From: Bispira polyomma
Taxonomy: Eukaryota
Direction: 5' to 3'
DNA length: 64,000 nucleotides
Assembly: GCA_965649765.1 (NCBI GenBank)
Contig: OZ287752.1
Location: forward strand, 52,638,001 to 52,702,000
Part shown: positions 2,471 through 64,000 of the stretch, piece after piece
Position numbering within the stretch: the first letter of the stretch is position 1
Layout: the number at the start of each line of letters is the position of its first letter
Translations under genes and position numbers: made by a program
The notes under the pieces: model-generated
The model's database searches: none
What the model saw: only the letters and a program-made list of their open reading frames with translations
Told to the model about the DNA's origin: nothing

Positions 2471-2476
2471 TTGCAG

Positions 2477-3479: not shown

Positions 3480-3489
3480 TTGGGTTTTG

Positions 3490-4929: not shown

Positions 4930-5418
4930 TGGGCCTTTATTTACTTACAACATATACAATATATACCTTAATGTTTGAAATGTAAAATTTTGGGCCACCT
5001 TAGCACCTCATTTCCCTTAAACTTTATATTATACACCTTTACTAATTAAATTTTGGCAACCTTAACAAAATTTAAGGTTACCTCAAACTCCAAAAACTTA
5101 ACTTAGGTAACCCTAACTTTTAAGTTAGGGCCACCCTTAACTTAAACTTCTTATTCCAAATTTAACCAACCCTAACTTCCATAAGTTAGGGTCCCCTTAA
5201 CTTAAATTATTTTGGCCCCCTTAGCTTAACTAGTTTAGGCTAAGGTGACCTTAACTCCTTTCTTCTAAATCTCTAAAATTTTGGTGCTAGGGTGGCTCTA
5301 AACTCAGTATGTAAATAAACTATTATCGATAACATAGATATTAAACTAATATCCCCAACCTATCTCTTTTATTGACTTGTATTTATAATTCTCCCAAGGT
5401 CAAAAGGGTAGGGCACTG
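4930..5418 (+). repeat. E1 repeat B2 (3' terminus)
   Basis: Direct repeat of B1. It contains AATAAA and ends GGGCACTG(TG). Confidence 0.9.
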
Positions 5419-6085
5419 TGATAGAGCAGAACCTATTTTAACTGCTTGTACACCATTTGAAGACAGTGCCTTAGAAACCAAACCATAATGACAAACAGTC
5501 AAGAAGTGTACTGTGATCAATTGTACCAAAGTCAGCCCACGGTACAAGCATCACTAATGCCATGGGTTCAACTTTAGATAAAGAAATATGTGTATCATTC
5601 TTTATAGACAATAAAGCTGTTTTTGTGGAACGACCACTCTTTTAGGCTGATTTATTTAAATTTCACAGTCCATTGACATGCTTCGTTTGACCACTTAATA
5701 CTTATAGATGTAATGATTGTGCTATGAATACAGATTTACATAGATTCACAGATTGTATATTAGTTGATCTTGCATATTCAGACATTTTAATAAAGAAAGA
5801 ATAGGGATATGAATATGACTGCTACAAAAGGATTTACTGTATTTACAAGGATACAAGTTTTCTGTCATCTATTTCCAACAGTTTTTTTAAACATGTATCT
5901 AACAGTCAGAGAAAGACAAATTCACAGAAATAGTGGCATATGTCATTACTACAACTTGATCATTTTAGTGGTGAAGAAATTTGCTGCGTTGTAGTCAATA
6001 CTTAGTCAACAATGTAAGCTTAAATTTACAAACCCTTGTGTTGTTTTTCATTCATGTATAGTGTTATATATTGGGGAAATGTTAC

Positions 6086-36363: not shown

Positions 36364-37224
36364 ATGCCTAACAAGGAATATCCTTGTAGTGTGTGCTTTG
36401 GCCGACACGAACGTCCGGTTGGCAAAAAGTGTAAATATAACTAGGTGGACAGCGTCGTCGAGGAGGTGCCTGCCGCCGATTCTGCTACTCCAGAGGTGTC
36501 TGATTCTGTTTCTGGGTTGATTTTACAACAACTGGTGGCAATGAATGAGAAAATGGATAGCATGGACCGACAGGTACAGGCTACTGAGGCGGCCCTATGT
36601 AACACTTCTTCTAAATCAACTTCTTGTGTAGTTAATGCTAATGAATCAGTAGTTGAGGTCGTTGTGCCATCTTTAGAGTATTTACAAAGAAATGTGGATT
36701 GGCCACAGAACTTTGTCCTGTCTGGTGTAAAAAAGGTCATACCCACATATGATGACCTCTTGTTGGTTCAATTCGTTCCTGGCTTTATCCGGTGTACTCA
36801 AGAACAAAAGCTACCTAACGTCCGAGAGGCCATGTTAGAATATCTCGCCAACTTAATGGACGACGTCCATGATTTTTCATGGGACGCTGCCAAAGTCTCA
36901 CATGCCATTCTATTAACCAATATGGAAATGGATCGTCTCAACTGGACAGATGTTGATAGAGTCGACCGGATAAGACGTGCTTATGCACAACGTCATGTTA
37001 CTTCGGCATCGAGTGGGTCTGGCCCTTTTAAAAACAATAGTAATGGTAAAACCAAAGCACAAACAAAAACTTCAGGTGTAAATTGTCGTTTCTTCCAAGA
37101 AGGAACATGTAAATTTAATGCTAGCCATAGAACTTCCGGGCAGTGGTTTAAACACAGCTGTGAGAGTTGTGATGGCGCTCACCAGACCAAGCTATGTCCT
37201 AAAAAAGGGGTTTCAAAAAACTGA
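36364..37224 (+). pseudogene. E2 gag-like ORF (N-terminal CxxC-H-C motif, C-terminal Cys/His fingers) with an in-frame TAG at 36442 and an internal deletion
   Basis: MPNKEYPCSVCFGRHERPVGKKC* followed by ORF 36445-37224, homologous to E4 gag. Confidence 0.85.
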
Positions 37225-37249
37225 GGGGCCACTGCGACAGTGCAGTGGC
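37215..37249 (+). promoter_or_regulatory. Predicted -1 ribosomal frameshift signal (E2)
   Basis: A AAA AAC (37215-37221), spacer TGAGGG, stem GCCACTGC-gacagt-GCAGTGGC. Pol lies in the -1 frame. Confidence 0.8.
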
Positions 37250-39749: not shown

Positions 39750-39793
39750 TGTATCACCATGTCTCCTTCTCCTGGTAGTATTCTGTGTTACAG

Positions 39794-40755
39794 ACAGAAA
39801 TCCACTGCAACAATTGCTATATAGAAATGCAACCAAGAAGCTTCACCTGGCCTTCTGCAGGTCTACTGACAGATCATATACAGCTATGTATAGGGTGTAC
39901 TTAGCCTATGCTACATTCCTGCATCTGCCCGTTGGCCAGGTGACAGTTATTGATCTTCTTGCAAAACCTGCCCATATGGCAAACAATTTATCTGCCATTA
40001 AGGCCAAGTGCATTGTCTATAATGTACCAATATGTGCCTTTAGTGACCCTCGTGTGGACTATTATCAGAAATCCGTGCAGCTAGCTGCCCCTCTTCATGT
40101 AAAGCTTAACAAGGTTATCGATATCCCACTGTTGACCAGTATAGTGAGTATTTCACTCACTACTTATATGGGATTAGTATTCAAAGCACTTTACCTAGTC
40201 AGCTACTTCTCATTTCTCAGGTTGTCAAATCTAGTACCTCATTCTTGTGCTCAATTTTCCCCTTTGAAACATTTAGCTAGAGCAGATGTCATGATTCATA
40301 AACATAAAACTGTTCTCCTCATTAAATGGTCGAAGACTATGCAAAGCAACAACCAGATCAAATTGATCACAATCCCACGTTTGCTGGGTTCCCCTCTTTG
40401 CCCAGTTGGGTCATTGGAGCGCATTTTGGCCAATACACCTTCTGAACCCAATAGCCCTCTTTTTCAGTTTAAAGATAATGCAAAGTGGGTACCTCTTACT
40501 GACACTCGGGTCCGTCGTCATTTTAAAAATGTACTTGCCAGGTTACAATTACAAGACTCTGGCCTTACTATGCACGCATTCCGACGTTCAGGTGCAACTT
40601 TTGGTTTTAACCATAATGTAAGCATTCAAAACATTCAAAATCATGGCACTTGGACGTCGGACTGCGCGTGGAGATATATCACCGACTCGGTGGATGCTGG
40701 TGATCAGGTAGCTGATACATTCAGACAACATCTCTCTGCTACTCCCCCTTCCTGA
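39794..40755 (+). CDS. E2 tyrosine recombinase (open frame, small internal deletion)
   Basis: FLRLSN..MHAFRRSGA..HGTW..WRY. The ORF-track start is TTG, and the frame opens at the acceptor 39792-39793. Confidence 0.85.
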
Positions 40756-43700: not shown

Positions 43701-45427
43701 TTTGAGAAACTGTATAATTGCATTTGTTGGCTGTTCTAACCACTATCAGCCTACGAAACCATTTTCTTTGGATTGGTTTCTGTGTGTTGTTTGAAACTCT
43801 ACAAATCAAATCAAATTAAAACATTAAAAAATCTATTGTCACTTGATATTTTTATTTGTGTATACCTATATCTTAATTGTTTCATTGAAAAAGGATTATG
43901 CATATATACTTCCAGGTAGACATCAACTTACAATCATTACTAATTAACCAGGGTTCTCGAACAAGGTCTCATGTTCGACTGCTTGTTCTGACTGCTACTT
44001 TCATTTGGTGGGATAACATCCTTTAGGAAGATGTGAACACACATTTGCTTAGTTGCTCTGATGACCGCTTAAAATGGTGGTAATAACTCAATCAATACTA
44101 TCTCCAGTGTCAGATTAAAGATCGTTGGGCACATTAAAGAATGATCATCATCAAGCATTGGCGCCCACAGTGCCTGCCCATGAGGAAGTGCTATTGAAAT
44201 AACCCTATACTTTGTGCTTAAGAAATATCATATGTTAAATATGCAATTAAGTTAGGGTGCATTTTTGTATTTATTTAATTAGAGTTTAACATTGACATTA
44301 TATGTCACATCACAACGGGAAGTTTTACTTATGGGGAAACGAGTGGATACTAGTTGGTCAAGACCGACCATCAGCAAGTAACTGCCAACTTTAGGGCCTA
44401 AATTGTTGCTAACCTACTAGTAACACCCCCTATATCTAATAATAATAAACATGTTATCAATATCTATATATCATTGGAAATATTAACCCTTAAATTTACC
44501 ATAACTATGTCATCTATTATTAAGATTCTTCATTATTGTTAATCCTATCTCAAAATATATTGAAAGATTTAACAATGTGAATTAAATTTATTTATTTATG
44601 TTATTTTACGGCTGATGTCACCATGCCATCTTGTATCCAAACCATTTCGGCTGTCCCCATCAAGTTACATACTTTAAATTCATATTCAGGTTGTTGAAAC
44701 CTTGTAGCTGGTCCTCCACCTATGCACATTTTAATTAAGTCTTATAACACATTTAAAAAACATAAGTTCACGAAAAAATTAAGATGTATTCCTTTTTTCT
44801 GTGCAACAATGCCTTTAACAGGTACAATATGTACTCTTATGCAACATACACGACAATAATTACATATGTAAGAGTACATTGTAAATCCATTACAAATAAT
44901 TTGATGCCTTCAACAGGTTCAATACATACACATATATAACATACACTGTAAAAACTACACATGTATGAGTACATTGTAAACCCATTAGAGGAATTTTATT
45001 TACCAATTAACAAATCAATGTCTTAATTTTAATAATTACACTAGTTATCAGATGGGCAAAATTTACAATTACTTATTTTATAGAAGGTTAAACATATAAA
45101 TTATAAATATGACATCCTATATGTTAAGCAGGACAACTTTAGGGGACTGCTACGTCAGTCCACAACACTGTTACCCAACTACCTTAAACTTTATCAGGTT
45201 ACAACAGCTATTATTAAGCCATCTGTCCATCTTAATACCAGCCAATGGGAGGGCTTGAACGCTACCAGCTTCCCGCAAAAATTGAAAGCCACCATATTAA
45301 TTATCGAATCTGAAGGAACAACAAGTGAATTTTAAAAAATTTACTTTTACATTTGTTTTATATTAAGTTGTATTTAGAATTTTATATATTGTATAGCACG
45401 GTTAGTGCAAAAGTGTTTTAATCAATC

Positions 45428-47696
45428 ATGGGAAAAAGTACAAAGGGGGCTCTACACAGTGTTGTGAAACAAAAGAAGCCCACGACTCGAGCTACCAAAG
45501 TACTGAAGGTGACAAGGGACACGGTTGATCAGGTATCGACTTCACTAAATGCTAGTGTAACAAATCCTATGGTAAATACTGGACAGAGTACACAGTCCTC
45601 GGCTAATAATAGTTGCTTTGACACGATCCCGTCCTCCGAGCAGGGATCGAACGAGATGCTCTCCATAAATAAAACGTCTCGAGTCTTCCAACATATCCCT
45701 GGCCCAGCGCATAGAAAGAGTTGAAGCTAGAACAGCAAATACCGTACCCGTACACAACCCCCCAAGCAACTCGGCGATGGAAACCCAGCACACGGCTATG
45801 CCTACCGATGGGATGGGGTTAAGTGCTGTTCACACTCAATCGTCACCTCAATCCACGTTGTCAAATACTCTTGGGAACCAGCTCTCGGCTATGCCTACCA
45901 ATGGGAGGGGATTAAGTGCTGCTCACACCCAACCATCGCTACAATCCACGTCGTCGAATCCACTTGGTAACCAGCTCACGGCTATGCCTACTACCGGGAG
46001 GGGGTTAGGTGCTGCTCACACCCAATCGTCACTACAAACCACAATACCAAATTCTATTGGCGACCAGGCCATTGATTTCATCCCACGTCAGGCTCTGCCG
46101 ACCAGCGGATTGGGGTTAAATGCCGTTCACACACAACCGACAACACAGTCGACAATGCACACATCAGCAGGTGTAGGGGGTATATACAACCCCATAGTCC
46201 AACAACAGGGGCATATAATGAACCAATTATCCTTAGGTGCTCCTCACACTAGGCCGACACCAGCCCATAACCCACTGACACTGCAAGCAGGACATGGCTT
46301 GCCTCAGGTCCAGCAGATCCAGCAGCAGCCGATTAATGTTTTTGATTATCAGAAGGACAGAATAGTGCCCAGTGTTGATGCTCTCAGGGCCATACCTAGT
46401 GTTCAATCTGCTGTCTCGCGCCAACTGGCCGAATATGAAGCATTGGCACACAAACACTTGCTCCAAGGTAAGGTGAACTCGAGAACAAAGTCCGGCAGGT
46501 TTAACAGTACCGACGTCACGACGGGGGATGCTCAATTTCGGTGGCCGAATGAGGGATGGGTCGGGGGTACCGCCCGAAAACGTCCGACCTACGACGAACT
46601 CTCACTGCCCCAGTGGGCGGCAGGGCAAATTTCCAATGCTCTGCAAGTACAAGACAACGCGCTTATGAAGAGCATGATGCTTCAGCTCGTATATGCCATG
46701 TGGGATGCCGCTTCATTACCATGGCCGGTGGTCAGGACAGCCTGGGCCCTCAACATGCAGGAGGTGGAGGAGGGTCGGCTGTCCTGGCAGGAAAACACGC
46801 AATGGGCGTTGAACAGGCTTAATGCCTCTCAACTCGCAATGGCTAACAGTACTCACAACGACAGTAACCGTACAACGCAAGGAGGAAGTTCGAACGAGGC
46901 CAAGGTGATCTGCAAACTGTTTAACACTGGTAAATGTTCCCAAAAATCAGACCACGGCAATTATAAACATAATTGCTGGTATTGCAGCAAGGTACTAGGT
47001 AAAGAACAAAGTCACCCTGAATTCAAATGTTACAGGGCTAATGCCAACAAACAGCCAGAAAACTCTGTATCAAATAAATGGGTAAATTTTCAACTAGCAG
47101 AATCACATGCCATAAGTACTGAGTGTAATAATAAGGACAGAAAGAACAGTCATTTAATTGCTAATAGAATAGTAGAGATTGATAAGAAGCAGCAATTAAA
47201 TGTCGATAAGAACAATTACAAACATATTGAGACAGTAAATAATGCTGAAATTGATATAGTAGTTACCCAATCTGTAAACTATATGTCAAATTGTCACAGA
47301 GTGATAAATGTCATTAATGGAAATAATGTAAGTCATAATGCTCTTGTTCAAGGTTTTCTAGATATGGGCTATAATGTACACAACACAGATGTGTCACAAG
47401 CAGACCATATGGGAAATAATGTGAGTCATAACGTTCTTGTACAAGGTTCTACAGGTAGGGGTCATGATGTACCCAACACAGGTGTGCCACAAGCAGAACA
47501 TAAGAACACTGGTCAGTATGTCAGATCTGATAGCACTAGAGATCTAGAATATAACCAAGTATTTATGAACAACAGCAGCAAAACATGTGAAGTAAGAATA
47601 GACATCACAAATTGGAATTACATAAGTAACAGGGGGGAATTTTCCTCTCCCATAGTATACATTCACAGTCACAATGACTTCTTTAAACATTTCTAG
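45428..47696 (+). pseudogene. E3 gag-like region running in frame into a long AT-rich linker
   Basis: ORFs 45428-45724 and 45777-47696: WPNEG..PTYDELSLPQW, CKLFNTGKC..H..HNCWYC..H..C. Confidence 0.8.
45793..46160 (+). repeat. ~90-bp coding tandem repeats (3-4 copies) in E3 gag
   Basis: AMPTxGxGLxAxHTQ unit repeated. Confidence 0.85.
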
Positions 47697-47780
47697 GCTC
47701 AGGCTGCTGGTGTTCATTACTATAACCAAATTGAATTCAAACCTTCTGGTTTACCAACAATTTTAAATTCGTTTTCTGTA

Positions 47781-49917
47781 ATGTTAGAATATCAGGAATG
47801 TCAAGATATCCAGTATGGTATTGAGTACAATTATGTTTCTGCAAAAGACAAACGACAAGCTGAGGACATTAAATCGTTTTATGACAGAGATATTACATGT
47901 TTGGACAGATATAACATGGACTATACTACGTATATGGAACAAGTTATTGACTGCATGATTGATGACTGTAAAGGGACTGACAATAACACAGATAATGTTA
48001 ATAATGATGAATGTGTAACAAGGAACAGGGAGACTGACAACATGACTGGGAAAAATGAAACAGGTAAGAGTCGTTCGCTTTGTGATGTCATCACAAATCC
48101 GGCTTCTTCAGAACATTTTAGGGACATGCTAAAAATGGCCAGTGAACCTGTTATCAGAAACACCACTGACATTAACAATCCCAATAAGGTTATAGGGTTC
48201 ATAGCTCTGTCTCCCACAAACTTTGAATTTATAGGTCCTGATAGGCAGGCCATTACCATTAAGGATATTTCAGAAATTTCAAGGGTTGCTGAAATCATTA
48301 AGGAAACAGGGCTTCCGAATTATAGACAGGCTAGGATACCTATTAACTCGGGTTTACATATCAAAGCATGGGAGAACTTACTACAGGAATATCCTGACCA
48401 GTTATTAATCCAATACATTAAGTTTGGATTCCCTCTGTCTTTGACACAACCAGATGAGATAACAAATCATAAGGTAACTAATCATTTCTCAGCTTCTCAG
48501 TACCAGTATGCAGTAAGGCAATACTTGGAAAAGGAAAAATCATTAGGGGCCATGTTGGGGCCTACTAAGGACATTTTGGATCCACAGTATAATTGTTCAC
48601 CACTACTTACTAGGCCCAAAGATATTACAAAGCGTCGAGTCATATTGAACCTTTCTTACCCACAAGGGGCCTCGGTTAATGATAATGTTGATAGGGACAA
48701 ATTTGACGGAGTGGCCTTTATATTAAAGTTTCCAAACATAGATAACATTACAGAAGCAATTCAGAATACTGATGATCCGGTACTATTTAAAATTGGCGTT
48801 ACACGCGCGTTTCGGAACTTACATGTTGACCCAGCTGACGCCATGAAACTAGGAATATTTTGGGACAATGAATATTATGTTGATCCGGCAATTGTGTTCA
48901 GCTGGGTCCACGGTAGCGCGGCCTTCCAGTGATGTACCGACGCAATAACGTCATTTATGGGTAACCATGGTTACCAGGTATTCGGATATATAGACGATTA
49001 CGTTTGCGTTGCGTCAAGAGAACATGCCCAAGCGGGTTTTGATATGTTATATGATATCATGACAAAACTAGGTTTACCTCTTAATGCAGATAAGCTTACT
49101 CCACCCACTAAGGAACTTACGTGTCTGGGCATTGACTTTGACATCACAGCAGGCACCATTAGTATTCAGCTCGAAAAATTACAGGAAGTTCACAAAACAT
49201 GCCTCGAAGTGCATGATAAAAAATATATTTCTAGAACAAAATTTCAATCGCTCCTGGGTCAATTGTTTTATATTCATGAATGCGTTGCCCCTGCCAGGAT
49301 ATTCATTAACAGGTTATTAGCTGCTTTTAGAAATAATAGCATGAACAAAAGATTTAAGGTCAGCAGTGAAATGCAAGCTGACATCCAATGGTTTATAAAA
49401 TTTTTGGAAAAATTTAATGGTATAACATATATACGAAAAAACATTATTTCGCACGCAAACGAGTTGCATTTGGATGCCTGTCTCACCGGATTCGGGGGAG
49501 TATGAAATAATGAGGTATATGCCACCCCGTTCCATGATATTTTCAACGGCGAATTGACAATTGTTCATTTGGAAATGTTGAATATCATCATCGCATTAAA
49601 AATTTGGGCCGAACAGTGGAAACACCAGAAATTGAGCATCAACTGCGATAATATGGCTGTGGTTCTGGTAGTTGAATCACAGAAAACTAGAGACGAATTT
49701 TTAGCACTTTGCTTAAGAAACATATGGCTAATCACAGCAGCATACGATATTACTCTTGAGATTAAACACATTCCTGGGAAAACAACATAATTGTTGATGC
49801 ATTATCTAGAATATATTCAGTAAAAGGCATTGACAATAATTTATTGCAATCAATTAGAGATAATAATGTTTGGAGGTCAGTCCCACTTAAATATTATAAC
49901 TTAAACTTAACAATTTA
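47781..49917 (+). pseudogene. E3 pol (RT + RNase H), disrupted
   Basis: IKFGFPL, SPLLTRPK, GYIDD, LHLDAC, LEMLN and CDN, with several stops. Confidence 0.9.
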
Positions 49918-49924
49918 ATTTCAG

Positions 49925-50902
49925 GTTCTCCACCTATTACACAGCAGCTCATGGACACAGCATGGGCCAGGATCAATACTGCTTTAAGACCAAAGTCTAA
50001 TTCAGCATATGAAGGACAATTTAAAACATTTCTAACCTTTCTACAGTTCTCAGGTATCCAACACATTACTACACATGCTGTAATTGCCTTTTTGGAATAT
50101 TTGGCACAAAATGAACTATCCCCTGGAGCCATCAAAAATTACATGGCTGCACTTAGGTTTATTGCAAATAAATATTCTTGGGACCTCTCTCCTTTCACGC
50201 ACATTCAGTGTCTCTTTTTCTCAGGAGTTTATCTCACAATTCTACATTTAGACCCAAACCTAAGGGGATTTTTACTATTCAGCAATTACTGCAGATTTCA
50301 GCTACATGTGAGATTTTGGATGACCCAATCTTGTTTAGAGCATTCTTCTTGGTGGCATTTTTCGGGTTTTTAAGGCTATCAAATATAGCCCCCCCCACTC
50401 TAGGGCAAGTTTTGATTCGTCCAAACATTTCCTCAGACAAGATGTGGTCTTTGGTCACCCGGGAGCCCACATCATACTAAAGTGGGCGAAAAACCTACAA
50501 AACAGAACGGACACACATATTATTCAAATTCCAACCCTTCAGAACAAATTATTGTGCCCAGTTAGGGCTTTAATGGCTCTCCTCCGATCTAGGAAATTGG
50601 ACAATAACCAACCTCTGTTTGCACAGGCTAAAGCACCTTATCCCACAATAGTGGATTCACACATTAGGGCAGCATTGCAAACAGTTCTCTCACACATAGG
50701 ATTGCAATATAGTTCCCACAGATTTCACACTTTCAGAAGGTCGGGAGCCACTTTCGCTTTTAACAATAATGTATTGCTTCAAAATATCATGTCCCATGGC
50801 CTTTGGAGATCTTCTGCCGTGTGGACCTATTTACAAAAAACATCCCAAGCAGCTTCCGTGGTCCCTCTAACTTTAGCGGCTGCCATTCCCTCTTCTTTCT
50901 AG
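49925..50902 (+). pseudogene. E3 tyrosine recombinase, frameshifted
   Basis: FLRLSN, FHTFRRSGA, HGLW and WTY spread across three frames. Confidence 0.9.
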
Positions 50903-53060
50903 TTTGGCTTGGGGCTAAAAATTTTACTTTTATTTTAAAAATTTTAAGCACTTCTTATACTATGTTAAGGTCATCTGTGAATATATATATATATACTAAC
51001 ATGTAAAAAATAAATACTCAAACTGAATCTTTTACTACCTTCTTATTATCTTTACAACATATTATGACCTGTGAGAATTACACCTTGACCTTAAACAATC
51101 TTGACCTTTAATTTCAATAGCATCACTCAGTGATGGGGACTGTGTTAAGCAGGACACCTTTAGGGGACTGCTATGTCAGTCCACAACACTGTTACCCAAC
51201 TACCTTAAACTTTATCAGGTTACAACGGCTATTATTAAGCCATCTGTCCATCTTAATACCAGCCAATGGGAGGGCTCGAACGCTACCAGCTTCCCACAAA
51301 AATTGAAAGCCACCATATTAATTATCGAATCTGAAGGAACAAGTGAATTTTAAAATCCCACCTCCTCCCCTTAACCTCAGCATAAGGTGCAAGATAATAT
51401 GACTTATTTCCACTACCAACTGCCTCTCTGTGTGCATTCATGACGTACACAGGTAGAGACGCTATTGTAAGGTTAAGATAATTGAGGTTATTTATACTCA
51501 TTGGCTGCCTCTCTGTGTGCATTTGTAATGTACACATGGTAGAGATGCGATTATGTATTGGGACAAAATAACATTGTGGACAAATATAATGTAAGGTCAC
51601 AAATAGGCCCACCTGATTTCCAGTTAGCCGGAACCTACGGACCTTGTGGAGGATCCTGTTTCCTAAACCCCCTCTGAGTCCACGTTTAGGGGGCCAGGGT
51701 TGAATAGGAGCTCTGGGAAGCAGGACCCTTTGCTGGGCGATTAGGTGCCCTAGGTCGGGGTTCCTGCACTGAGAATAACGGGGCACTATGGACATGACTG
51801 AACTAGACTAATGGTCATACAGACGTTAATTTGACGGGGTTTAAGCCCTATTGATTGCTAAAAAGACAGGACGGACTATGACAAGTTATGGGGCATTTAG
51901 GGTGTCTCTAAGATAAATTTAAAGTGTGGTGTATATGTATGGAAAAAGGATCTGTTAACGATCAATGTGACTAACACTGGCTAATGCCTTTAATGAGCTA
52001 TGGAGGATAATGTACCAGTATGTAACTAGATATACGTGAAGTACGAGATATTCTTGTCATGTTCAATATGTACGGGCTAGTCTCTTTGTAAACCACTATG
52101 AATACTATGTGGACTATGATATGAATTTACTTTGTTCATGATGAGAAAGTTTATATGCACACAACACACAACATGAAGCTAGTATGGTAAAGGTTAATAT
52201 ATGTGCGATGTAATATGACATAAAATCAGCACATGTTATAGTATTTTAAACGTAACTATTTTTATACTTTATATTTAAAGTCTGTGATGGTTATAGCTTC
52301 GTCATGGGGCTAAAAATTTTACTTTTATTTTAAAAATTTTAAGCACTTCTTATACTATGTTAAGGTCATCTGTGAATACATATACATACTAACATGTAAA
52401 AAATAAATACTCAAACTGAATCTTTTACTACCTTCTTATTATCTTTACAACATATTATACTTGTGAGAATTACACCTTGACCTTAAACAATCTTGACCTT
52501 TAATTTCAATAGCATCACTCAGTGATGGGGACTGATGATACATTGTCATATGCATACATTAAATGATAGATACCGAATTTGAAAGACTTCTTCCTTAAAA
52601 AAAGGAACACCCAGACATCTGCATAATTACACACACACACACAGACATCTATTTGGCACAGTTCTCCTGGTTTGGAGCAGAAGGTGATATGAAGGTAACT
52701 AACCAATAGCCTACTGTGTTGTTCAAGGCCAAATGTTGTACGTTCTGATATTTCATGTATTTCAAATTATAACAGTGGAGCCATGTTTGAGATATTTTTA
52801 TTTGACCTTCTAGTCAGATTTATGTACAGTTTCAGGGTTAAGTGTAAATTTTTTTAAATATTTGCAGATATTTTTAAATACCCACAAAAAAAAAAATATC
52901 ATAAAATATATCATAACAAGTAACAGATGTTCACAGACCCCATAAAATACCCATAATAATTCTTCAGTTAGCATGAAAAAAATCATCTTTTCAAAAGCAG
53001 TGTAATAAAGTTTGCACCCCATTCACTGAGAGGTTTTGAGAATAATATATCCATCCATTT

Positions 53061-54282
53061 ATCAGTAACATTTTCCAATGACCTTAGGTCACATACTCAA
53101 GTAAGCTATCATCAGAAATATTCAATTGGCCGCATCATACAAGCCCTTTAAATCTTGAATTAATCATTTACTTTACCATCTCCAACGAAACCACTGCCAT
53201 GGTCCTATGGCACCTAGTCGCCTAGCAGTGAAGGTTCCCGGCCGCAGGGCATTAATCCCCGGTAGCCCACACCATTGGGTAGTTTACAATCTGGGAACTA
53301 GCAGCACACGGATCCGGGGTCGAACCATTAGCAGTGGCACGTGAGTTATACAGGTAAGTAAACTGACTTAAATCTTACTTAACAGTCCTTAATGCTGAGG
53401 TAAAGGGGAGGTGGGGGGGAATTTAAAGCGGTTTCTCTGTCAGTGTGTGAGATCAATATGGTATGTGACCCCCCTCGTTTTGCATGCATTTCTATCATAT
53501 AATGAATCTGATTGAAGGGGACATACTGAAGCCCTACAGTCAAATCTGCCCCTAGGGGTTAAGGTGGTAATGTAACCTAACGGGGAACTGCGCTAGCAGA
53601 CCCCTCTGTAATCGTTCTGTACACACATTTTGTGAATACCATTTTAAGACGAAACAAAAGTCTTAGATTTTTATCAGTAACATTTTCCAATGACCTTAGG
53701 TCACATACTCAAGTAAGCTACCATCAGAAATATTCAATTGGCCGCATCATACAAGCCCTTTAAATCTTGAATTAATCATTTACTTTACCATCTCCAACGA
53801 AACCACTGCCATGGTCCTATGGCACCTAGTCGCCTAGCAGTGAAGGTTCCCGGCCGCAGGGCATTAATCCCCGGTAGCCCACACCATTGGGTAGTTTACA
53901 ATCCAGGAACTAGCAGCACACGGATCCGGGGTCGAACCATTAGCAGTAGCACGTGAGTTATACAGGTAAGTAAACTGACTTAAATCTTACTTAACAGTCC
54001 TTAATGCTCAGGTAAAGGGGAGGTGGGGGGGAATTTAAAGCGGTTTCTCTGTCAGTGTGTGAGATCAATATGGTACGTGACCCCCTCGTTTTGCATGCAT
54101 TTCTATCATATAATGAATCTGATTGAAGGGGACATACTGAAGCCCTACAGTCAAATCTGCCCCTAGGGGTTAAGCTGGTAATGTAACCTAATGGGGAACT
54201 GCGCTAGCAGACCCCTCTGTGATCGTTCTATACACACATTTTGTGAATACCATTTTAAGACGAAACAAAAGTCTTAGATTTT
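53061..54282 (-). repeat. 2 x ~612-bp tandem repeat made of an A-repeat + spacer fragment from another YR retrotransposon family
   Basis: Units 53061-53672 and 53673-54282. The minus strand has GAGGGGTCTGCTAGCGCAGTTCC (E3 A: AGGGGACTGCTACGTCAGTCC) and TTTAAATTCCCCCCCACCTCCCCTTTACCTCAGCAT (E3: TAAAATCCCACCTCCTCCCCTTAACCTCAGCAT). Confidence 0.75.
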
Positions 54283-55893
54283 AGGCCGAGCTTAGTCTTA
54301 GTTTTTGGTTACGTCTAGGACTGTTGGTGAACATGGGTCCTGGTGTAACGTTAATCATAACATAGACTTGCTCACAAGTCTTTGTATTTTAACCTTATGC
54401 ACCATGCATGAAGTCATTATGATTCCGTGGTATGAAAAGGCCAAGTGTTGTCTGTGGAAATATAAGAGATATGCACTCTTGTCAGACACCAGTACCAGTG
54501 TCATACTGTTCTCATATAATGCTTGAGACAAAAGGACTTGAAAAAAGTCTAATCACACCACCACTGGAATATAAATACACAAGAGAGCTACAGATGGCCA
54601 TTCCAGCACATGTACAGATTGTGTAATGTCATTTAAAGATTACTCAGATGTATTTAAGAGTAACGGTATTGTTATTGTAACGACTATTTTAAAAAAATAC
54701 ATATTTTTATTGTTTCTATTTTTTGTTAGGCACTTTTATGTTGACAAATACATTACAGGACTCTTCATAGGACTGCCAGTTGAGTCCATCCCTCTAGTAA
54801 TATAAATTTTGCAGTACCATAAATCTCTTTGGCATGGCTATCTTTGCCCATTTTTATGTCCATCCAGATTCCCTTTCATCACAATCCATCACACCTCAAG
54901 CTTCTACATGTTGAAATCTATATTGAATTAACACTATAACCAATAGCAAGGACAACTTAATATGGTATTGTGATTGTTTTGCCACATTCACAAGCACTTC
55001 TCGTGACTTCCATTGTGCGGGTGAAGCCAAATTCGGTTTGCTATTCCGCTCAGATTCCTGGCCTTTGAGGATTCTGACATGAAAGGGTGAACTGTCTTAT
55101 AAGGAATTTTATGTGGCCCAGAAAATTGCACTATTTTGTAGGGTGCAATTGTATATTGTTTACAGCAGGCTCCAGCCAGGTATTGTGTCACTGTCACAAT
55201 GCGCCACCATTAAAAAGGGTGCCACCATCCTAGAAATAATATAGAAGGCCTTCATAAGTTGGTTGGAACAAATCGACCCGTCTAAACTGGTGTCAAAATT
55301 ATATTATCAGACGGTAATCAGGCCCAGCCATCATGTTGATAATAATATGTAAAGCCTTAATTGATAGGTTGAAAACAATCCACCAGGCCACACAGAGGGG
55401 TTCGCAGATGTATTTTTGAAAATATAATTCTTGTTTATATTGTCTGCATTTGCCGGAAATACATTCGATCCTTTTGGAATATTTAGAATGTATGGCAAAA
55501 AATACAGTAATTAGTAGTTTGGGGTAATATTACTTAAATATGGCTATAAAAAATTTGAATTGTGAAGCAGATTTCTAAACATAAAAGGTTTGCCATTATC
55601 CTTGGTCCTAAGGATGCCTATATTCGGAATGGCGGCCAAAAACATGCGACAGAAGTTGTGATAAGAAACAAACAACTGAGCCCATCAAACTGGATAGTAC
55701 TGTGTAACCATTCAGTCCATTAAATGCCAGTGCACTGATATTTACAGCCGATTGTATGTTTATACATAATATCATTCAGAGAGCATACTAAAATATATAT
55801 GGTTCTCAGGTATCACTACTTTTATTTATCATAGATATACATTTGTAAGCACAATTAGTATATAGTCCAACTTCTAGGTGAGGACTGGGTTTT

Positions 55894-56044
55894 TGTAAGC
55901 GAACGCCCTCAGCGTTCGTGGCCTCAGTTCTGGGGTACCAGCCTGGTCTACTATTATGGGATGGTGTACGACTATATAAGGCTCTCCTTTTCAAAATCTC
56001 CCGCCTTTATCGTTCGTCAGCAGAGCAACAACTAGTTTAAAATT
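55894..56044 (+). promoter_or_regulatory. E4 A1 repeat, putative internal promoter
   Basis: 5' hairpin GCGAACGC-cctca-GCGTTCGT and a TATATAAG box at ~55973, upstream of the gag ATG at 56120. Confidence 0.6.
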
Positions 56045-56119
56045 TGTTTGGGTGCCATTTTGTTGGTGGTGTATATGTTTTTATATTTTACAGTATTTTA
56101 GTGGAAACACCTTTTAGTT

Positions 56120-57187
56120 ATGCCTGTCTATGAGTGTAGTCGATGTTTAACCAAACATGAGCGTCCTGTAGGGCGAAATTGCGTTATTGCAACCGTTGAC
56201 TCTGCCTCTGGGGAGGAGATCGATGCTGCCTCTGACACTGAACCCGCAAACGGTGAGTCTGGCGATGCAGTTACGAACGCGATATTACTCCAACTGCACT
56301 CGATGAACGAGTTAATGGTAAAAATGGACCAGCGGGTTCAGAGGAATGAGGCCGCATTGGCGACGAACCTCACCAGTAGTCAGCCCAGTCATCAGGTCCC
56401 CGTTCAGGCAAGTAGTAGTTTGATCAGTTCTAGTGTTGACAGGCCTGCTAGTTGCTCTGCTGGCGTAGGTAAGAGCCCATCTATCGCTACGTCCGACAGT
56501 ATAATTCCTGGCATAGATTTTTTAAACCAGAATGCCCTAATACAGCTCCAAGTGGAGCAGAGATTGAAAGATCTCAAGACGTTGAATGAGACCACCTCGC
56601 AAGGTAAACTGAAGTCCCAGCGTAGTGGGGCGAATGAGGTGTTGGTAAGAAAGGTCACCGCCTGGCCTCAAAACTATGTGCTCACGGGTAGTTCTAAGTC
56701 TCGGCCTAGCTACGATGAGTTAACCGTGTTGCAATGGGTGTGTGGTTTCGCTCGGATTGCCCACGAGGAGAAGTCGATCGAAGTGAAGAATGCCATGCTG
56801 GATTACATGGGGGGTCTTATGGAGGATGCCCAGGATTTTTCTTGGGAGTCAGCTAAGGCCTGCCATGCAGTCGTATTGACAAGTATGGAGATGGATAAGT
56901 TGGGGTGGCTAGAGGTAGATAAGATGGATCGAATCCGAAGAGCCCATGCTCAGCGCCATGTGTCGAACAGTAGAAATTCCTCTGGGGCGAATGGACGGCC
57001 AAGTAACTCGAGTAGCAGTAGGTCTGTACGTCGTAAGGGTGCAATGTCCTGTCGCTTTTATCAGGAAGGAAATTGTCGATTTCCCAGCTCTCACAATACT
57101 GGAGGTCAGTTATATAAACATCATTGCGAGACATGTGAGGGTAGCCACCAGACTAGTGAATGTCATAAGAAAGGGGCAAAAAACTGA
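56120..57187 (+). CDS. E4 gag-like protein, 355 aa
   Basis: N-terminal CxxCxxxHxxPxGxxC, a predicted coiled-coil stretch, and C-terminal CRFYQEGNC..H..HHCETC..H..C. Confidence 0.9.
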   Translation: MPVYECSRCLTKHERPVGRNCVIATVDSASGEEIDAASDTEPANGESGDAVTNAILLQLHSMNELMVKMDQRVQRNEAALATNLTSSQPSHQVPVQASSSLISSSVDRPASCSAGVGKSPSIATSDSIIPGIDFLNQNALIQLQVEQRLKDLKTLNETTSQGKLKSQRSGANEVLVRKVTAWPQNYVLTGSSKSRPSYDELTVLQWVCGFARIAHEEKSIEVKNAMLDYMGGLMEDAQDFSWESAKACHAVVLTSMEMDKLGWLEVDKMDRIRRAHAQRHVSNSRNSSGANGRPSNSSSSRSVRRKGAMSCRFYQEGNCRFPSSHNTGGQLYKHHCETCEGSHQTSECHKKGAKN

Positions 57188-57212
57188 GGGGCCACTGCGT
57201 TAATGCAGTGGC
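57178..57212 (+). promoter_or_regulatory. Predicted -1 ribosomal frameshift signal (E4)
   Basis: A AAA AAC (57178-57184), spacer TGAGGG, stem GCCACTGC-gttaat-GCAGTGGC (57191-57212). Confidence 0.85.
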
Positions 57213-59607
57213 TAAAAGTGGGAAGCACAAATGTAGGTTTGTTTATAATACTGAATTTAAGAGTGCACAATTATTTGAGAGGTCTGTGTGGCGAAAAACG
57301 TGTAAATATGTGAAGGGCACTAGGCCAGGCTTGAGTTATAGCCAGGCGTTGCAAAAGAATGGCCCAGTTCAAAAGTATGGGTGTGTAAATAGAAGTGTTA
57401 GTGAGGTGCCGGTAAAACAGGCAAGGGTTGACAAGAGTAAGGTAGACATATTACGTGGCAAAAGTGACACATTGTTGAGGCCCCTTGGTACCTCTGTGGG
57501 ACAATGGACTTCCATTGTGAAGCCAGGCCGGGGTGCGAAACAAGGCAAGGTGATAACAAAGGAGGTCAAGTGCTCGAGTTTGAATGGGGGCGAAGAGAGG
57601 CGGGTCAATGGGGGTGTGGCTGTCCTCCCTCTTGCTAACAGGTATACAGCTTTAGTGTCGCTGCCGGTCGATGACGGTGAAAATGTGGACGAGCCCGTTC
57701 GATTCCTTTCTGGCCCTAGGGACAAGCCCGTTGACCGAGGCGAGGGCAGGAGTAAAACTGCTTCCGAAGATAGCCCGGAAAGTCTCGAATGTCCCGATAA
57801 GTACTCTTGTGCCTTGAAACAGAAAGTAAATAAGAAAGGCATGTTACCTAAGGCTGCCTCAAATCCTACTTACAGAAAATGGCAAGCTCAAACCCAACAT
57901 GCATATGGATTCACTCCTCTCTCTGCTCTGGGCTGTGAGATGGCAGATCAGGGTGAGGGAGGGCCCGAACTTTCCATTTTGCAAATGCATGACTTAATTC
58001 GGGCTGACGGCAGGCATAATTATGAAGGGTTGCAAATCCCTGTTCCCTCTCAATTAAGACCCGAGAGTTGGAAAAAATACCTCAAAAATTACTGGGATTG
58101 GCAATTGCCTCTCCTTATAAAATATGGATTTCCCCTGGACGTCGATCATTCAGTAAAATTGGAATCCAGTGAGAGTAACCATAAGTCGGCTGAGGAATAT
58201 CCACAGCATGTAGAGGCTTATATGAAAGAAGAATGTGAGTTCGGCGCCATGTTAGGGCCATTTGACAAACCTCCTCTTCCGGGCCTGCACTGTTCTCCCC
58301 TTATGACAAGGCACAAACCGTACTCAATTAACCGGAGAGTAATTGTAGACTTGAGTTGGCCTCAAGGGGGGTCGGTTAATGCGGGAGCTTCTCCTTCCTC
58401 TTACTTGGGCGTTGAATTTCTACTGTCTTATCCGTCCATTGATAATCTCACTAGTGAGGTGGTAACATTGGGGAGAGGATGTGAGATATTCAAGGTCGAT
58501 ATAAGTAGGGCGTTCCGCCACGTACCCATTGACCCTGGCGACGTTGACCTCCTAGGTCTAAAGTGGAAGTCCTATTATGTGGACAGATCTCTGCCGTTCG
58601 GATATCGTAATGGTAGCACGATTTTTCAGAGAATTTCGGATGCCGTGCGATTCATAATGCACTCTGAAAATCATAATGTCCACAACTACATCGACGATTT
58701 CTTGGCTATTTCTGTTCCCAGCAAAATTCAAAAAACTTTCCTCAGATTGCAAGAACTGCTACAAGAGTTGGGGTTGACAGTAAGTCCGAAAAAATTGGTT
58801 CCTCCCAGCACGCAGGTCGTCTGCCTGGGCATAGTAGTGGATACCATTCGAGGTACTACTTCCATCCCGGGTGAGAAATTAAGTCAAATTAAAGATAAGT
58901 GTCACGAATGGAAATCCAAAAAATTCTGCACTAAGAGAGAGCTCCAGTCTTTACTTGGCTTGTTATTATATATCTCTAAATGTGTAAAGTATGCTCGGGT
59001 CTTTTTGAATAGGATGCTGGAGCTGTTACGAGATAATTACACCAGAAAGTATATCGCCATCACCCCTGAATTCAGGCGTGACTTGAATTGGTTTACTACT
59101 TTTGCAGAACACTTCAATGGAGTCTCTTTTTTCATGCCTAAGCCCATAACTGGTGAGATTGAATTGGATGCCTGCCTTACTGGAATGGGGGGTATTTTTG
59201 AGAAACAAGTGTACCAAATTAACATTCCTCCAGAAATGACTGAGGTCAATATTGCTTCTTTGGAGATGCTTAACATCTTGGTAGCTCTAAAATTGTGGGT
59301 TCATAAATGGAAAGGTCGTAGAATATTGGTCAGATGTGATAATCAGGCAGTTGTAAGTGTCTTACGGACAGGGCGCACCAGAGATCCCGAATTAGCCACG
59401 TATTCTAGGAACATATACATGTTAGCTAGCAAGTTTAGTATTGATATTGTTGTCATACATATTTTGGGTAAAGAAAATAAAATTGCAGATTTGCTGTCAA
59501 GATGGAAGGAAACTGAAGCCGACCATTTGTCGTTATTTAGGTTAGCTGGGCCTGTCCAGTGGCTGCCTGCTTGCCGCAGTTTATTAAAAGTTAACTCACT
59601 TATATAG
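57184..59607 (+). CDS. E4 pol: reverse transcriptase + RNase H, probably translated as Gag-Pol
   Basis: Uninterrupted ~800-codon frame with KVDISRAFR, LPFG, NYIDD, ELDAC, LEMLN, CDNQ and ADLLSR. The first ATG is ~210 codons in. Confidence 0.95.
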   Translation: MRGHCVNAVAKSGKHKCRFVYNTEFKSAQLFERSVWRKTCKYVKGTRPGLSYSQALQKNGPVQKYGCVNRSVSEVPVKQARVDKSKVDILRGKSDTLLRPLGTSVGQWTSIVKPGRGAKQGKVITKEVKCSSLNGGEERRVNGGVAVLPLANRYTALVSLPVDDGENVDEPVRFLSGPRDKPVDRGEGRSKTASEDSPESLECPDKYSCALKQKVNKKGMLPKAASNPTYRKWQAQTQHAYGFTPLSALGCEMADQGEGGPELSILQMHDLIRADGRHNYEGLQIPVPSQLRPESWKKYLKNYWDWQLPLLIKYGFPLDVDHSVKLESSESNHKSAEEYPQHVEAYMKEECEFGAMLGPFDKPPLPGLHCSPLMTRHKPYSINRRVIVDLSWPQGGSVNAGASPSSYLGVEFLLSYPSIDNLTSEVVTLGRGCEIFKVDISRAFRHVPIDPGDVDLLGLKWKSYYVDRSLPFGYRNGSTIFQRISDAVRFIMHSENHNVHNYIDDFLAISVPSKIQKTFLRLQELLQELGLTVSPKKLVPPSTQVVCLGIVVDTIRGTTSIPGEKLSQIKDKCHEWKSKKFCTKRELQSLLGLLLYISKCVKYARVFLNRMLELLRDNYTRKYIAITPEFRRDLNWFTTFAEHFNGVSFFMPKPITGEIELDACLTGMGGIFEKQVYQINIPPEMTEVNIASLEMLNILVALKLWVHKWKGRRILVRCDNQAVVSVLRTGRTRDPELATYSRNIYMLASKFSIDIVVIHILGKENKIADLLSRWKETEADHLSLFRLAGPVQWLPACRSLLKVNSLI

Positions 59608-59630
59608 CATGTGTTAGTCATGTTTTCTAG

Positions 59631-60616
59631 ATATACAACCTGTGGCCATCTCCTTGATGCAGAAAGCTTGTGACAGACTTGTACTTGCCTTCACCCCTGC
59701 CACTAACAGAGCCTACAACAGAATGTTCAGGCTGTTCTTGGCGTTTGGAGCCTTTATGTCTTGGCCTCCTCAAAAGGTGACTGTGTTATATCTCTTAGCT
59801 TATTTAGAGTTTTTAACGTTTAATGGTGTGTCGGCTAGTCAAGTTCTTAATCATCTTTCTGCCATTAAGGCTAAGTGTGTCCTCTTCCATATATCCGTAG
59901 ATGTTTTTTCTGATAAAAGAATTACCTATTATAATAAAGCTTTGGCGATGCATAGACCGTTGCAAGTAAAACTTAAGTCAATTTTCGATGTTCAGTTGTT
60001 GAGGTCTCTTATTATAAAGTGCGACAGTACTTACATGGGTCAAATTTTTAAAGCAGTCTATCTTACCAGTTTCTTTTCCTTTCTGAGGCTGTCTAACCTC
60101 TGTGCTCATTCGGTTGCTGCTTACTCTCCTCTTAAGCAGCTTGCAAGGGCTGATGTTCTTTTCAAGCCAGGGTACGCTGTCCTCATTATTAAATGGTCTA
60201 AAACCCTTCAAAACAATAATGCCGTTCGCTTGCTCACCATACCAGCTTTAACCAATTCCATCTTATGTCCGGTGCAAGCTTTAAAAAACTGTTTGGCTAT
60301 TTCTCCTAAAGGGAAAGATCTGCCCTTGTTTCAATTTAAGCAGAATGCCATTTGGTTGCCCCTTACTGATACTAGGGTTCGGAGGCATCTTAAGAATGTC
60401 TTACTAATGCTGGGCCCGCAGTACTCTGGCTTGACCTTTCACGCTTTCAGGCGTTCAGGTGCCACCTATGCCTTTAACAATAATGTCACCATTCAGGACA
60501 TCCAAAGGCACGGCACCTGGACGTCCGATTGCGTCTGGCGTTACATTTCGGATTCTGCCAATGCTGGTACTCAAGTTGCCGATTCCTTCAAAACTATTCT
60601 ACAAAATACCTACTAA
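59631..60616 (+). CDS. E4 tyrosine recombinase, probably exon 2 of a spliced Gag-YR mRNA
   Basis: FLRLSN (R), FHAFRRSGA (HxxR), HGTW and VWRY (Y). Preceded by the acceptor tgttttctag. Confidence 0.95.
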
Positions 60617-63249
60617 AATTTTGGGGTTTGGTGGCATCACTGTAAGATCTAGTCAGTTTAACAGTGCAAGTAGCATATTAATTACCTGTAAACTAAATGA
60701 ATTAACTGTGGGCATAAGGTCCCCCTGTATTATTAAAGTACATATTGTACTCATGTAATTAAAGTTCCACTTAAAACCTAAGTCAAACTTTAATTTGTTA
60801 ATCTTCAAAGTCATATCTAAGTTTCAACTTAAATCTAAATTTCTAAAGTCAACTTCTTTCTTAGTTAGGGTGACTTAAACTCATTCTGGTTTAACCTAAA
60901 GTCCTAAACTCAGTTGACTTAAGGGGACCTTATGCTCACTCAAAGTGCATATCATGTCAAAGAACTGTACATAAATATCTTAGTAATAGTAGCTGTAAAT
61001 ATGAAATAAATATATTTAACCGCAGTATTGTCTTTCTATGACTTGTTCGGTTAATTGAGTTTCCTCAGGCACTACTCCGAGGAACTGTGTAAGCGAACGC
61101 CCTCAGCGTTCGTGGCCTCAGTTCTGGGGTACCAGCCTGGTCTACTATTATGGGATGGTGTACGACTATATAAGGCTCTCCTTTTCAAAATCTCCCGCCT
61201 TTATCGTTCGTCAGCAGAGCAACAACTAGTTTAAAATTCCCACCCTCCACTTACCCCCTTTGAACTGGAATGTCGCTACTATTAGTAGGAATATATTGGT
61301 ATAGATGTCTTAAGAAGTGTTGCACATATTATTGTCAAATGCTACTGTAGTCAGTTATGTATTTTCAGACAAATGGGAGTCAGAATAACTTTGTCAAATG
61401 CCGCACTGCTTGTTGGTGTCCACCACTGGGACCTGCCGTTTGTGTGTAACATCAAGGGTTGTGTCATCAGTTTGTAGAACAGTCTGGCAGACGAGTGTCT
61501 GGGCGGTGTAATACGTCAGTGGTGGACTCTGCGTAAAGCATTATAGTTTACATTATCTACATTCTACTTCAAAGTTTACCTATTCTTATGCGAGTTTGTA
61601 TTACATGTGTCAATTATTGGATAAGGGGTCGTATTATTCGATCACGTAAGGGCGTTGCGGTATGAGCTAGATGTAATGTAGCATAAGATGGGCTAAAATG
61701 TATATGTAAGTTTCTTTTAGTAGCATAATGTGGTATTTGCCTGGGGCTTTATACATGACTGTTTATAAATTTGTTGGGCAGGATAAAGTTTACATTGGTT
61801 TTAACTTCCTCAATCATAGTGCATGAACTATTTTATATCATTTTATATCTTTTACATATCATTGATTGTAACTTTTGTTATGAATATTTTAAAAATTCAG
61901 TCGCAACTGAGTCGCTACTGGGGTTCTGATGTACTATGGTTGGGGGTTTATGATATGCATGATAGAGTATGCGGGTTGGTGGCATCACTGTAAGATCTAG
62001 TCAGTTTAACAGTGCAAGTAGCATATTAATTACCTGTAAACTAAATGAATTAACTGTGGGCATAAGGTCCCCCTGTATTATTAAAGTACATATTGTACTC
62101 ATGTAATTAAAGTTCCACTTAAAACCTAAGTCAAACTTTAATTTGTTAATCTTCAAAGTCATATCTAAGTTTCAACTTAAATCTAAATTTCTAAAGTCAA
62201 CTTCTTTCTTAGTTAGGGTGACTTAAACTCATTCTGGTTTAACCTAAAGTCCTAAACTCAGTTGACTTAAGGGGACCTTATGCTCACTCAAAGTGCATAT
62301 CATGTCAAAGAACTGTACATAAATATCTTAGTAATAGTAGCTGTAAATATGAAATAAATATATTTAACCGCAGTATTGTCTTTCTATGACTTGTTCGGTT
62401 AATTGAGTTTCCTCAGGCACTACTCCGAGGAACTGATATATTTATTTGATGTGTACAACACAGTTTGCAACACAGTCATCCCATACATCTTTTTAGATGT
62501 TTAAACCAATGTTAGCCTTTCTTTTACATTATATACAGCACATCCTGTGGTAGTATAAACATCATTTTCACAATAAATTTACATCAAGAAAACAGCTTCA
62601 TTACTCAAGATTTGGCCGAATAATTCATGTCAGTATATATACAAGTACAAAAGTCCAAAATCCCATTCCACCACAAAATTTGCACAGGGCTGTGTTTTTT
62701 TTCAAATGGCCATTTCAGTATATTTAACTCCATGGCTTGTGGATATTGATACCTTTCAGATCATGTAGAAGGGAAATGAGTATAAAATCAAATGCACAAC
62801 GAGTTTTTAGCTGTTACATTACAATCTCTTACATTTAGTATAAAGTGTTGCATATATTATAGCTATTACTTGTTTGTAATGTCACCAATAGTTCCTCTTT
62901 GTGCTTATTACTTAAATTACTCTTCCTTCTGTTGGACCCATGTGCTTGTTTCTACACAGTTATATAACTCTCACTTGTTTTGTGTTTATTCAATTGAATA
63001 TGTTTTATACTTGAACAACATTTATAACAACAATAGACGTATACTCATGTAAGTCTACACTTGTAACAGAGTCCTTAATGAAGCATGCTACAATATACAT
63101 GAATTAGAAAAATGTAATACAAGGTAATATCTGAAAGGGTATTTCAATGTTTTAATTTCGAGGTACAGTGAGATACAGCACTATTTAGTTGCAAATAAAC
63201 ACTTTTCATCCTTTTTGAAGGTAGCTACTTCTACTACTATAGTAGTACC

Positions 63250-63692
63250 ATACTATACAGAATTTTATTTCACAAAAGAAACAAAACAATGTAGTAACTA
63301 CTGAAGTAAAAATATCACTAATGCATAATAAATGTCTAAATATAATACAGAATTTTACTTCATAAAAAAACCATTGTACTAACTACTCCAGTAAAGATAT
63401 CAGTAATGCATAAAAAATGTATAAATATTATACAGAATTTTATTTCAAAAAGAAAGAAAACATTGTACTAACTACTCGAGTAAAGATATCAGTAATGCAT
63501 AAGAAATGTCTTAATATTATATAGAATTTTATTTCAGAAAAGAAAGAAAACATTTTACTGACTATTCGAATAAATACATCAGTAATACATAAGAAACGTC
63601 TTCATAAAATATAGAATTTTATGTTAGGAAAGAAAGAAAACATTGTATTAACTACTTGAGTAAAGATATCGGTAATGCATAAAACATGTCTT
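63250..63692. repeat. ~89-bp minisatellite, ~5 diverged copies
   Basis: TACAGAATTTTATTTC..GTAAAGATATCAGTAATGCATAA recurs at ~63257, 63346, 63430, 63520 and 63610. Confidence 0.85.
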
Positions 63693-64000
63693 ATTTTCTA
63701 ACTTACTACAAGTAAACCAATTAGCTGGCGATAAAAACAACCATTGAATTAATCAATTCTCATTCAAATACAGGTACATATTTTATATTTTAACAAAATC
63801 TGTTGCAGTATATTACCATAAAAAGTCCCAAAAATGATATGACAAAACTTACTCCAGCTGAATCTACACCTATTGAGAAAGCAAAGTCAAAAACACATTA
63901 GGCTAGGGCATAGTGCTGGCTGCTGGCTATAGATTGGTTCTGGTAGAGGTCTCCTGGTTCATACGCATAATGTGCATTGTTACTCCCACCACTGAAGTAG

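Follow-up and report, generated by a model that had tools for sequence, protein, structure and literature searches.

The tyrosine recombinase (YR) retrotransposon that we call E4 carries, across the stop codon of its gag-like gene (57178-57212), a slippery heptamer followed at a fixed short distance by a hairpin, and we suggest that -1 ribosomal frameshifting on A_AAA_AAC, aided by this simple hairpin, very probably gives its Gag-Pol protein. The observation itself is real, and the signal is strongly conserved. The frameshift reading for E4 draws on the motif, its phase, the open -1 frame, the conservation and the covariation described below. The hairpin would hold ribosomes up while tRNA-Lys and tRNA-Asn occupy AAA AAC, both tRNAs would slip to AAA AAA, and decoding would resume at CTG, so that the junction would read ...GAKN then LRGHC.... 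Most ribosomes would instead stop at the next codon and release the 355-aa Gag, while the minority slipping back one base would make a 1,162-aa Gag-Pol, a Gag-RT/RNase H fusion. Slippage would thus set a low Pol:Gag ratio, as in retroviruses.

The window, by which we mean the whole 64,000-nt stretch of Bispira polyomma DNA analysed, holds four Ngaro elements of four families, E1 to E4, within its 64 kb (1-5420, 36445-40755, 45122-52534 and 55894-62435). E4 (55894-62435; Table 1) is intact, with the order A1-gag-pol-YR-B1-A2-B2, and is a Ngaro-type YR retrotransposon, an assignment made by layout and domain content. Split direct repeats of the form A1-ORFs-B1A2B2, found in both E4 and E3, are the Ngaro layout (PMC8547959; this and the other papers given by PMC number are cited from excerpts). 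RT/RNase H is followed on the same strand by a YR, recognized by its catalytic motifs, with no DDE integrase, and there is no methyltransferase domain, an absence that separates Ngaro from DIRS and PAT according to an excerpt of PMC4157794. Pfam searches identify RVT_1 (E=4e-11) and RVT_3 (E=1.6e-5) in pol, which ends just after RNase H and gave no methyltransferase match at E up to 5. The E4 YR falls below the Pfam cut-off (Phage_integrase, E=0.12; integrase SAM-like, E=0.085) and has no PDB sequence match; its homologue in a metagenomic relative, L181, scores E=5.7e-5 for the SAM-like domain. The gag-like ORF has no Pfam match. It encodes an N-terminal Cys/His finger, a predicted coiled coil, a helical domain and a C-terminal Cys/His finger, and its structural model (pLDDT 76.5) found no Foldseek match at E <=0.001 (best VIA Z 4.7). 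Tandem repeats unrelated to the elements lie at 13533-14954, 25254-25622, 53058-54282 and 63250-63724 (units of ~700, 123, 612 and 90 nt), and an inverted repeat pair (8297-8909 / 18300-18904) is 74% identical across 10 kb.

Table 1. Positions in the window of the E4 features and of the related junctions in E2 and E3.
Feature	Position	Strand	Remarks
E4 repeat A1	55894..56044	+	100% identical to A2
E4 gag-like ORF, 355 aa, ends ...GAKN-TGA	56120..57187	+	gag by position only
Predicted splice donor, phase 1 (last exon base 56603, intron GT from 56604)	56601..56609	+	
pol ORF, -1 frame, 812 codons stop to stop: ~240-aa linker, RT (YIDD), RNase H	57169..59607	+	
Slippery heptamer A_AAA_AAC, last two gag codons	57178..57184	+	
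Spacer with gag stop (TGA in E4; TAA, TAG in other families)	57185..57190	+	
Hairpin GCCACTGC-N6-GCAGTGGC, predicted stimulator	57191..57212	+	invariant 6-bp core, covarying flanking pairs
Predicted phase-1 splice acceptor before YR	59609..59630	+	
Tyrosine recombinase ORF (R, HxxR, H/W-Y motifs)	59631..60616	+	
E4 repeat B1	60622..61087	+	99.6% identical to B2
E4 repeat A2	61088..61238	+	matches A1
E4 repeat B2	61970..62435	+	matches B1
E2 signal, like that of E4	37215..37249	+	E2 is a degenerate copy of another family
E3 gag/pol junction codon	47079..47081	+	TGG here, in-frame TAG in relatives

The gag of E4 ends GCA AAA AAC TGA, so that A_AAA_AAC sits in X_XXY_YYZ phase with the upstream ORF. 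This heptamer ranks among the shiftiest in eukaryotes (PMC5009743, in excerpt). An earlier note on this DNA had described a shared A AAA AAC TGA GGG-arm-N6-arm unit in E2 and E4; the 35-nt pattern indeed matches exactly at both, and at no site in 100 dinucleotide shuffles. Its statement that the loops diverge also holds (GTTAAT in E4, GACAGT in E2), as do the peptides that it quoted upstream of any ATG in E1, E2 and E4, all present in the sequences. Its description of pol as -1 relative to gag and open through the site holds for E4; E2 is a broken copy with a fragmented pol and with a gag that is missing the KSQR/donor region. The E1 signal lies 42 nt before window position 1 (L110:3959-3993); its stop comes one codon later, and its flanking pair is G-C instead of C-G. 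E3 has no such signal and belongs to a clade with an in-frame UAG, discussed below.

Searches of the assembly (1.04 Gb, 75 contigs) identified ~1,180 sites that match AAAAAAC-N8-CACTGC-N6-GCAGTG. The two forms of the signal gave 729 matches, a few of which have a 7-nt gap, and, for the E1 form, 458, and reversed controls gave 0. Other spacings were found at 17 sites, none of them at the frame-preserving 5, 11 or 14 nt, and TGG after the heptamer, which the pattern allows, was absent from the 100 matches listed. Two Gag protein searches, which yielded 7,000-8,400 first-look candidates genome-wide, supplied 99 loci; each list of 150 contributed its top 30 and a further 19 or 20 chosen by hand for diversity. 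All 19 specified bases are present in 80 of these loci, a single mismatch is seen in 12, and the signal is gone from 7, three of them (L040, L041 and L096) by visible deletions; the heptamer, in phase with gag, is exact in 88 of the 99. While the E4 Gag query included the terminal KN, the E1 query was made without the gag C-terminus, and its 50 loci comprise 40 exact signals, 6 with one mismatch and 4 lost. The earlier note had named loss of heptamer and stem from other intact copies as evidence against its reading; all 46 loci in which the -1 frame stays open for at least 400 codons keep all 19 bases, as compared with 34 of the other 53, an association for which Fisher's p of 1e-6 is inflated by near-identical copies. 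Among 20 copies chosen as aberrant for their odd ORF lengths, the motif was exact in 8, had at most two mismatches in 3 and was not found in 9.

The conservation reaches the level of individual codons. Near-invariant Gag residues number 43 across the 15 families that were gag-selected and whose gag end is open, and the median share of the commonest codon at these residues is 0.53; it exceeds 0.9 only at the Lys (1.0) and Asn (0.93) of the heptamer. The stem codons are CAC in 15/15, TGC in 13/15, GCA in 14/15 and GTG in 15/15 families. TAA, TAG and TGA are all used as the gag stop, either abutting the heptamer or set one codon further on, and within the E4 family a TGA/TAA swap causes no amino acid change in the -1 frame. 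This DNA-level conservation comes from one genome, and other genomes contribute protein-level evidence in the form of Gag ends. Of 83 Gags found in databases for other genomes, which share no more than 69% identity with the own-genome Gags compared, 28 have no finger, 1 has a long tail and 54 have a short tail behind the finger. Of those with a short tail, 40 of 54 end in KN or KNx; none of the 26 sister-clade Gags with a short tail, out of 36 in all, does so. Viral contigs contained no Gag relative, and two pattern matches in them (L182 and L183) are due to chance, having no gag or RT. Metagenomes yielded one relative, L181, in which gag and pol share a frame across a TGA and the heptamer is absent.

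The hairpin folds at -17.4 kcal/mol in E4 and -17.1 kcal/mol in E2, with 0/200 shuffles as good for each 29-mer, and overall the fold energy has a median of -16 kcal/mol (range -20 to -6). To follow it across copies, 113 loci, made up of E2, 20 loci selected by the pattern and the 92 gag-selected ones that have no more than one mismatch, were grouped at 85% linkage into 40 families with a median nucleotide identity of 0.51; 17 of the 40 were pattern-selected and are uninformative about the core. The pair that adjoins the core (27:46) is fixed by no pattern and is nevertheless paired in 39/40 families by four pair types (CG in 21, GC in 15, UA in 2, UG in 1, unpaired in 1). Its covariation score, in which cells count sequences, is 0.211, against 0.067 when shuffled and at most 0.064 in slid controls. 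The check for covariation that the earlier note proposed is thus borne out at the flanking pairs. The outer eighth pair forms in 24/40 families and the inner closing pair in 33/40, so that the 6-nt spacer and 8-bp stem of that note, correct for E2 and E4, give way to 7 bp at a 7-nt spacer as the conserved unit. The spacer, fixed at 6-7 nt, is inside the 5-9 nt usual before stimulatory structures (PMC7618472, in excerpt). GNRA tetraloops occur in 13 of the 33 families with the closing pair, as compared with a background of 0.04. The hairpin is short, which is a point against the frameshift reading.

The 6-bp core behaves differently from its neighbors: it shows no compensatory change across the 40 families and, being invariant, is uninformative about a stimulatory structure, so that its pairing is deduced from complementarity and from the covariation flanking it. 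The CG/GC swap at the flanking pair may reflect one event on the tree, and template switching can 'correct' inverted repeats without selection. Each core pair involves a non-synonymous position, and a required H-C-x-x-A-V peptide combined with pairing could therefore lock the core; a bound protein could also lock the six pairs. As these pairs are invariant across 40 families while their neighbors covary, we considered that the hairpin might be bound in a sequence-specific way, for instance by the zinc finger of the element's Gag, and might thereby both turn frameshifting on and mask an in-phase splice acceptor, the sister clade having swapped in a UAG and a TMV-type CARYYA, 3-8 codons downstream. 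We hold this extension to be unlikely; if it were true, one 35-nt element would set the Gag : Gag-Pol : Gag-YR ratio.

The element appears to use splicing to make its recombinase. The Gly codon at the predicted donor in gag is GGT in all 32 frameshift-clade family representatives in which it was located (7/39 were not located), nearly all reading AG/GTA, while all four codons occur at a control Gly a little further on. The same donor occurs in sister-clade loci and in L181, and T-rich phase-1 acceptors precede YR in both clades and in L181. A first acceptor scan over a wide range found matches in 71 of 73 loci with YR, several of them off position, and we relied on a stricter scan. The predicted intron is 2.6-3.4 kb long (56604-59630, 3,027 nt, in E4). 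Judging from these conserved in-phase signals, splicing would join N-terminal Gag to YR, yielding a 489-aa protein from the first 161 Gag codons and YR and removing the frameshift signal from that RNA. Among potential spliced retrocopies, the 40 DNA matches scored at the YR acceptor were all unspliced, and none of the 20 copies with odd ORF lengths, which came from a search with the gag N-terminus, was joined at the donor. No GT..AG joint was seen among 15 joints listed of 16 in contigs, of unrecorded kind, from three runs, a result that says nothing on splicing or expression. Contigs in all three runs join across the whole element (55839-62436, starting 54 nt upstream of A1), and possibly represent an empty-site allele.

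Pol itself could in principle be made by alternative splicing from the gag donor to an AG within the 3' arm of the hairpin (GCAG/TG, at 57208/57209 in E4), which would produce an in-frame Gag(N)-Pol with the hairpin regulating the acceptor. That AG is in phase 1 in the pol frame and so matches the conserved donor, from which the element already appears to splice; such a use would account for the invariant GCAG, and in the sister clade a phase-1 YAG lies within 33 nt of the UAG in 12/12 families, at +18 to +33 in 11 of them. Against it, the 18 nt before the 3'-arm AG contain 3.5 T, compared with 4.8 before random pol YAGs and 9.8 before YR acceptors (13 families), another AG occurs within 20 nt upstream in 40/40 families, and the failure to find a join at the donor in any of the 20 aberrant copies applies here too. 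As it also leaves the fixed heptamer, its phase and the fixed spacer unexplained, we regard this route to Pol as very unlikely.

Frameshifting calls for a downstream ORF in the -1 frame that is open through the site and has no start of its own, and this is what is found. Nine families whose -1 frame is long have the first Met of this ORF at codons 33, 34, 36, 43, 70, 92, 166, 222 and 382, the last of these beyond the conserved GFxP motif, and in L174 it falls after conserved pre-RT motifs; Pol has no conserved AUG. Pol might still be initiated independently, whether through reinitiation, from an internal promoter or at an AUG further downstream, with the motif doing another job such as packaging or termination. 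The first Met of E4 pol, at codon 225, is upstream of RT, and the element Tca2 has a promoter at its junction (PMC2194720, in excerpt). The lack of a conserved Met argues otherwise, as do peptide blocks after the stem and upstream of the first Met that are shared between families, and the paucity of stops in the -1 frame, where the 50 codons after the stem contain 5 stops as compared with 49 and 176 in frames 0 and +1 (in 22 representatives chosen for long -1 frames, and hence biased). We find an independent start for Pol scarcely credible. A point against translation of pol from the signal onward is that the linker after the stem is weakly constrained, with dN/dS of 0.85 for one related pair and 0.52-0.62 for three others; values in other frames are 0.72-1.03 and those for RT 0.09-0.11. 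Readthrough of the E4 TGA was ruled out, as frame 0 closes after 41 codons. By analogy, Tca2 also counts against reading any junction as recoding from its looks, since one resembling a recoding signal can fail in reporters (excerpt of PMC2194720).

Equally hard to credit is that the arms are a DNA site of the recombinase type, or that the His-Cys-x-x-Ala-Val peptide is what is conserved, with pol reached by polymerase slippage on the A run: tyrosine-recombinase sites typically have 6-bp spacers between inverted arms, which the 6-bp spacer here suits, and the core is invariant rather than covarying, but neither the A/B junction nor the element ends carry the arms again, synonymous positions are fixed in both heptamer and stem, the enriched GNRA loops are an RNA feature, and both the final C of the heptamer and its constant distance from the stem are in keeping with ribosome geometry.

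The relatives of E3 appear to have arrived at a different solution. Their gag and pol share one frame, split by TAG followed by G in 12/12 families (in 40 of the 46 loci whose junction was located; 4 of 50 were not located), and Pol would be reached by reading through this in-frame UAG. In 10/12 families an in-frame CARYYA is present at a distance of 12-27 nt, counted from the first base of the stop, while in TMV it is directly adjacent to the stop (PMC2754532, in excerpt), and the UAG junctions have no strong hairpin. In a quick RT tree of 55 rows (own-genome elements and L181), the two junction types fall on separate branches with support of 99 each; the tree is midpoint-rooted and does not set the order of events. 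One locus off its branch, L197, was mislabelled, its assigned RT being 2.7 kb away and probably another element's. Single copies show how such junctions can be altered. In L041, a young copy with 99% identity, a 20-nt deletion removed the hairpin, so that pol now follows the stop in frame; this one natural copy illustrates how a -1 junction can turn in-frame. In L205 a junction-spanning deletion leaves one gag-pol frame of 1,105 codons. Two database proteins from other genomes are natural run-throughs, P0028 with KKRIRYCSFAVP after a frameshift-clade Gag and P0234 with RQP after a UAG-clade Gag, and their downstream peptides are those of the own-genome elements.

How YR retrotransposons produce their RT and recombinase has barely been studied. 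The comparative data provide a testable scheme in which Gag is made alongside Gag-Pol, through a -1 frameshift in one clade and UAG readthrough in the other, and Gag(N)-YR arises by splicing. Such a scheme would extend retrovirus-style control of the Gag:Pol ratio to a retrotransposon order without protease or integrase, would show two sister clades in one genome with different recoding, and would put right annotations in which pol and YR begin at arbitrary AUGs.

The type of signal is textbook; its carrier appears to be new. In the literature searched, available in part, a gag-pol slippery site in YR retrotransposons is not described, and an earlier mention in Goodwin and Poulter 2004 or Poulter and Butler 2015 is possible. 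E4 shares with Ngaro the A1-ORFs-B1A2B2 repeats, the order gag, RT/RH, YR and the absence of a methyltransferase, and the excerpts of the Ngaro literature give no gag-pol recoding signal (PMC8547959, PMC4157794, PMC9210276). Poulter and Butler 2015, as quoted in an excerpt of PMC13003380, proposed frameshifting where RT/RH and YR overlap; here, there is no overlap of pol with YR, their junction looks spliced, and the frameshift would be at gag-pol. Among 51 animal LTR retrotransposons surveyed, 28 have pol in the -1 frame, and such elements likewise make Gag-Pol via a heptamer at the gag end, although they belong to a different order with a DDE integrase and LTRs (PMC5009743, in excerpt). The earlier note compared the site with MMTV gag-pro, and the likeness stands for the heptamer AAAAAAC (listed in a table of PMC3835772) and extends to the 7-nt spacer. 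It fails for the structure downstream, as MMTV needs a bent pseudoknot (excerpts of PMC3835772, PMC7618472), and here the loop pairs with no second stem of the MMTV type at +3..+47, where complementarity (4.35) gave no signal above the control with swapped partners (4.34). We therefore consider HTLV-II gag/pro and human astrovirus 1a/1b, both of which use stem-loops, to be the closer counterparts. The signal described here differs from theirs in its shorter stem, in having the stop codon inside the spacer, in being known from sequence alone and in its carrier, a host-genome YR retrotransposon without protease or integrase; it shares with them the heptamer, the 6-7 nt spacer and a simple GC-rich hairpin, and with HTLV the location at the gag end (excerpts of PMC7618472, PMC3835772).
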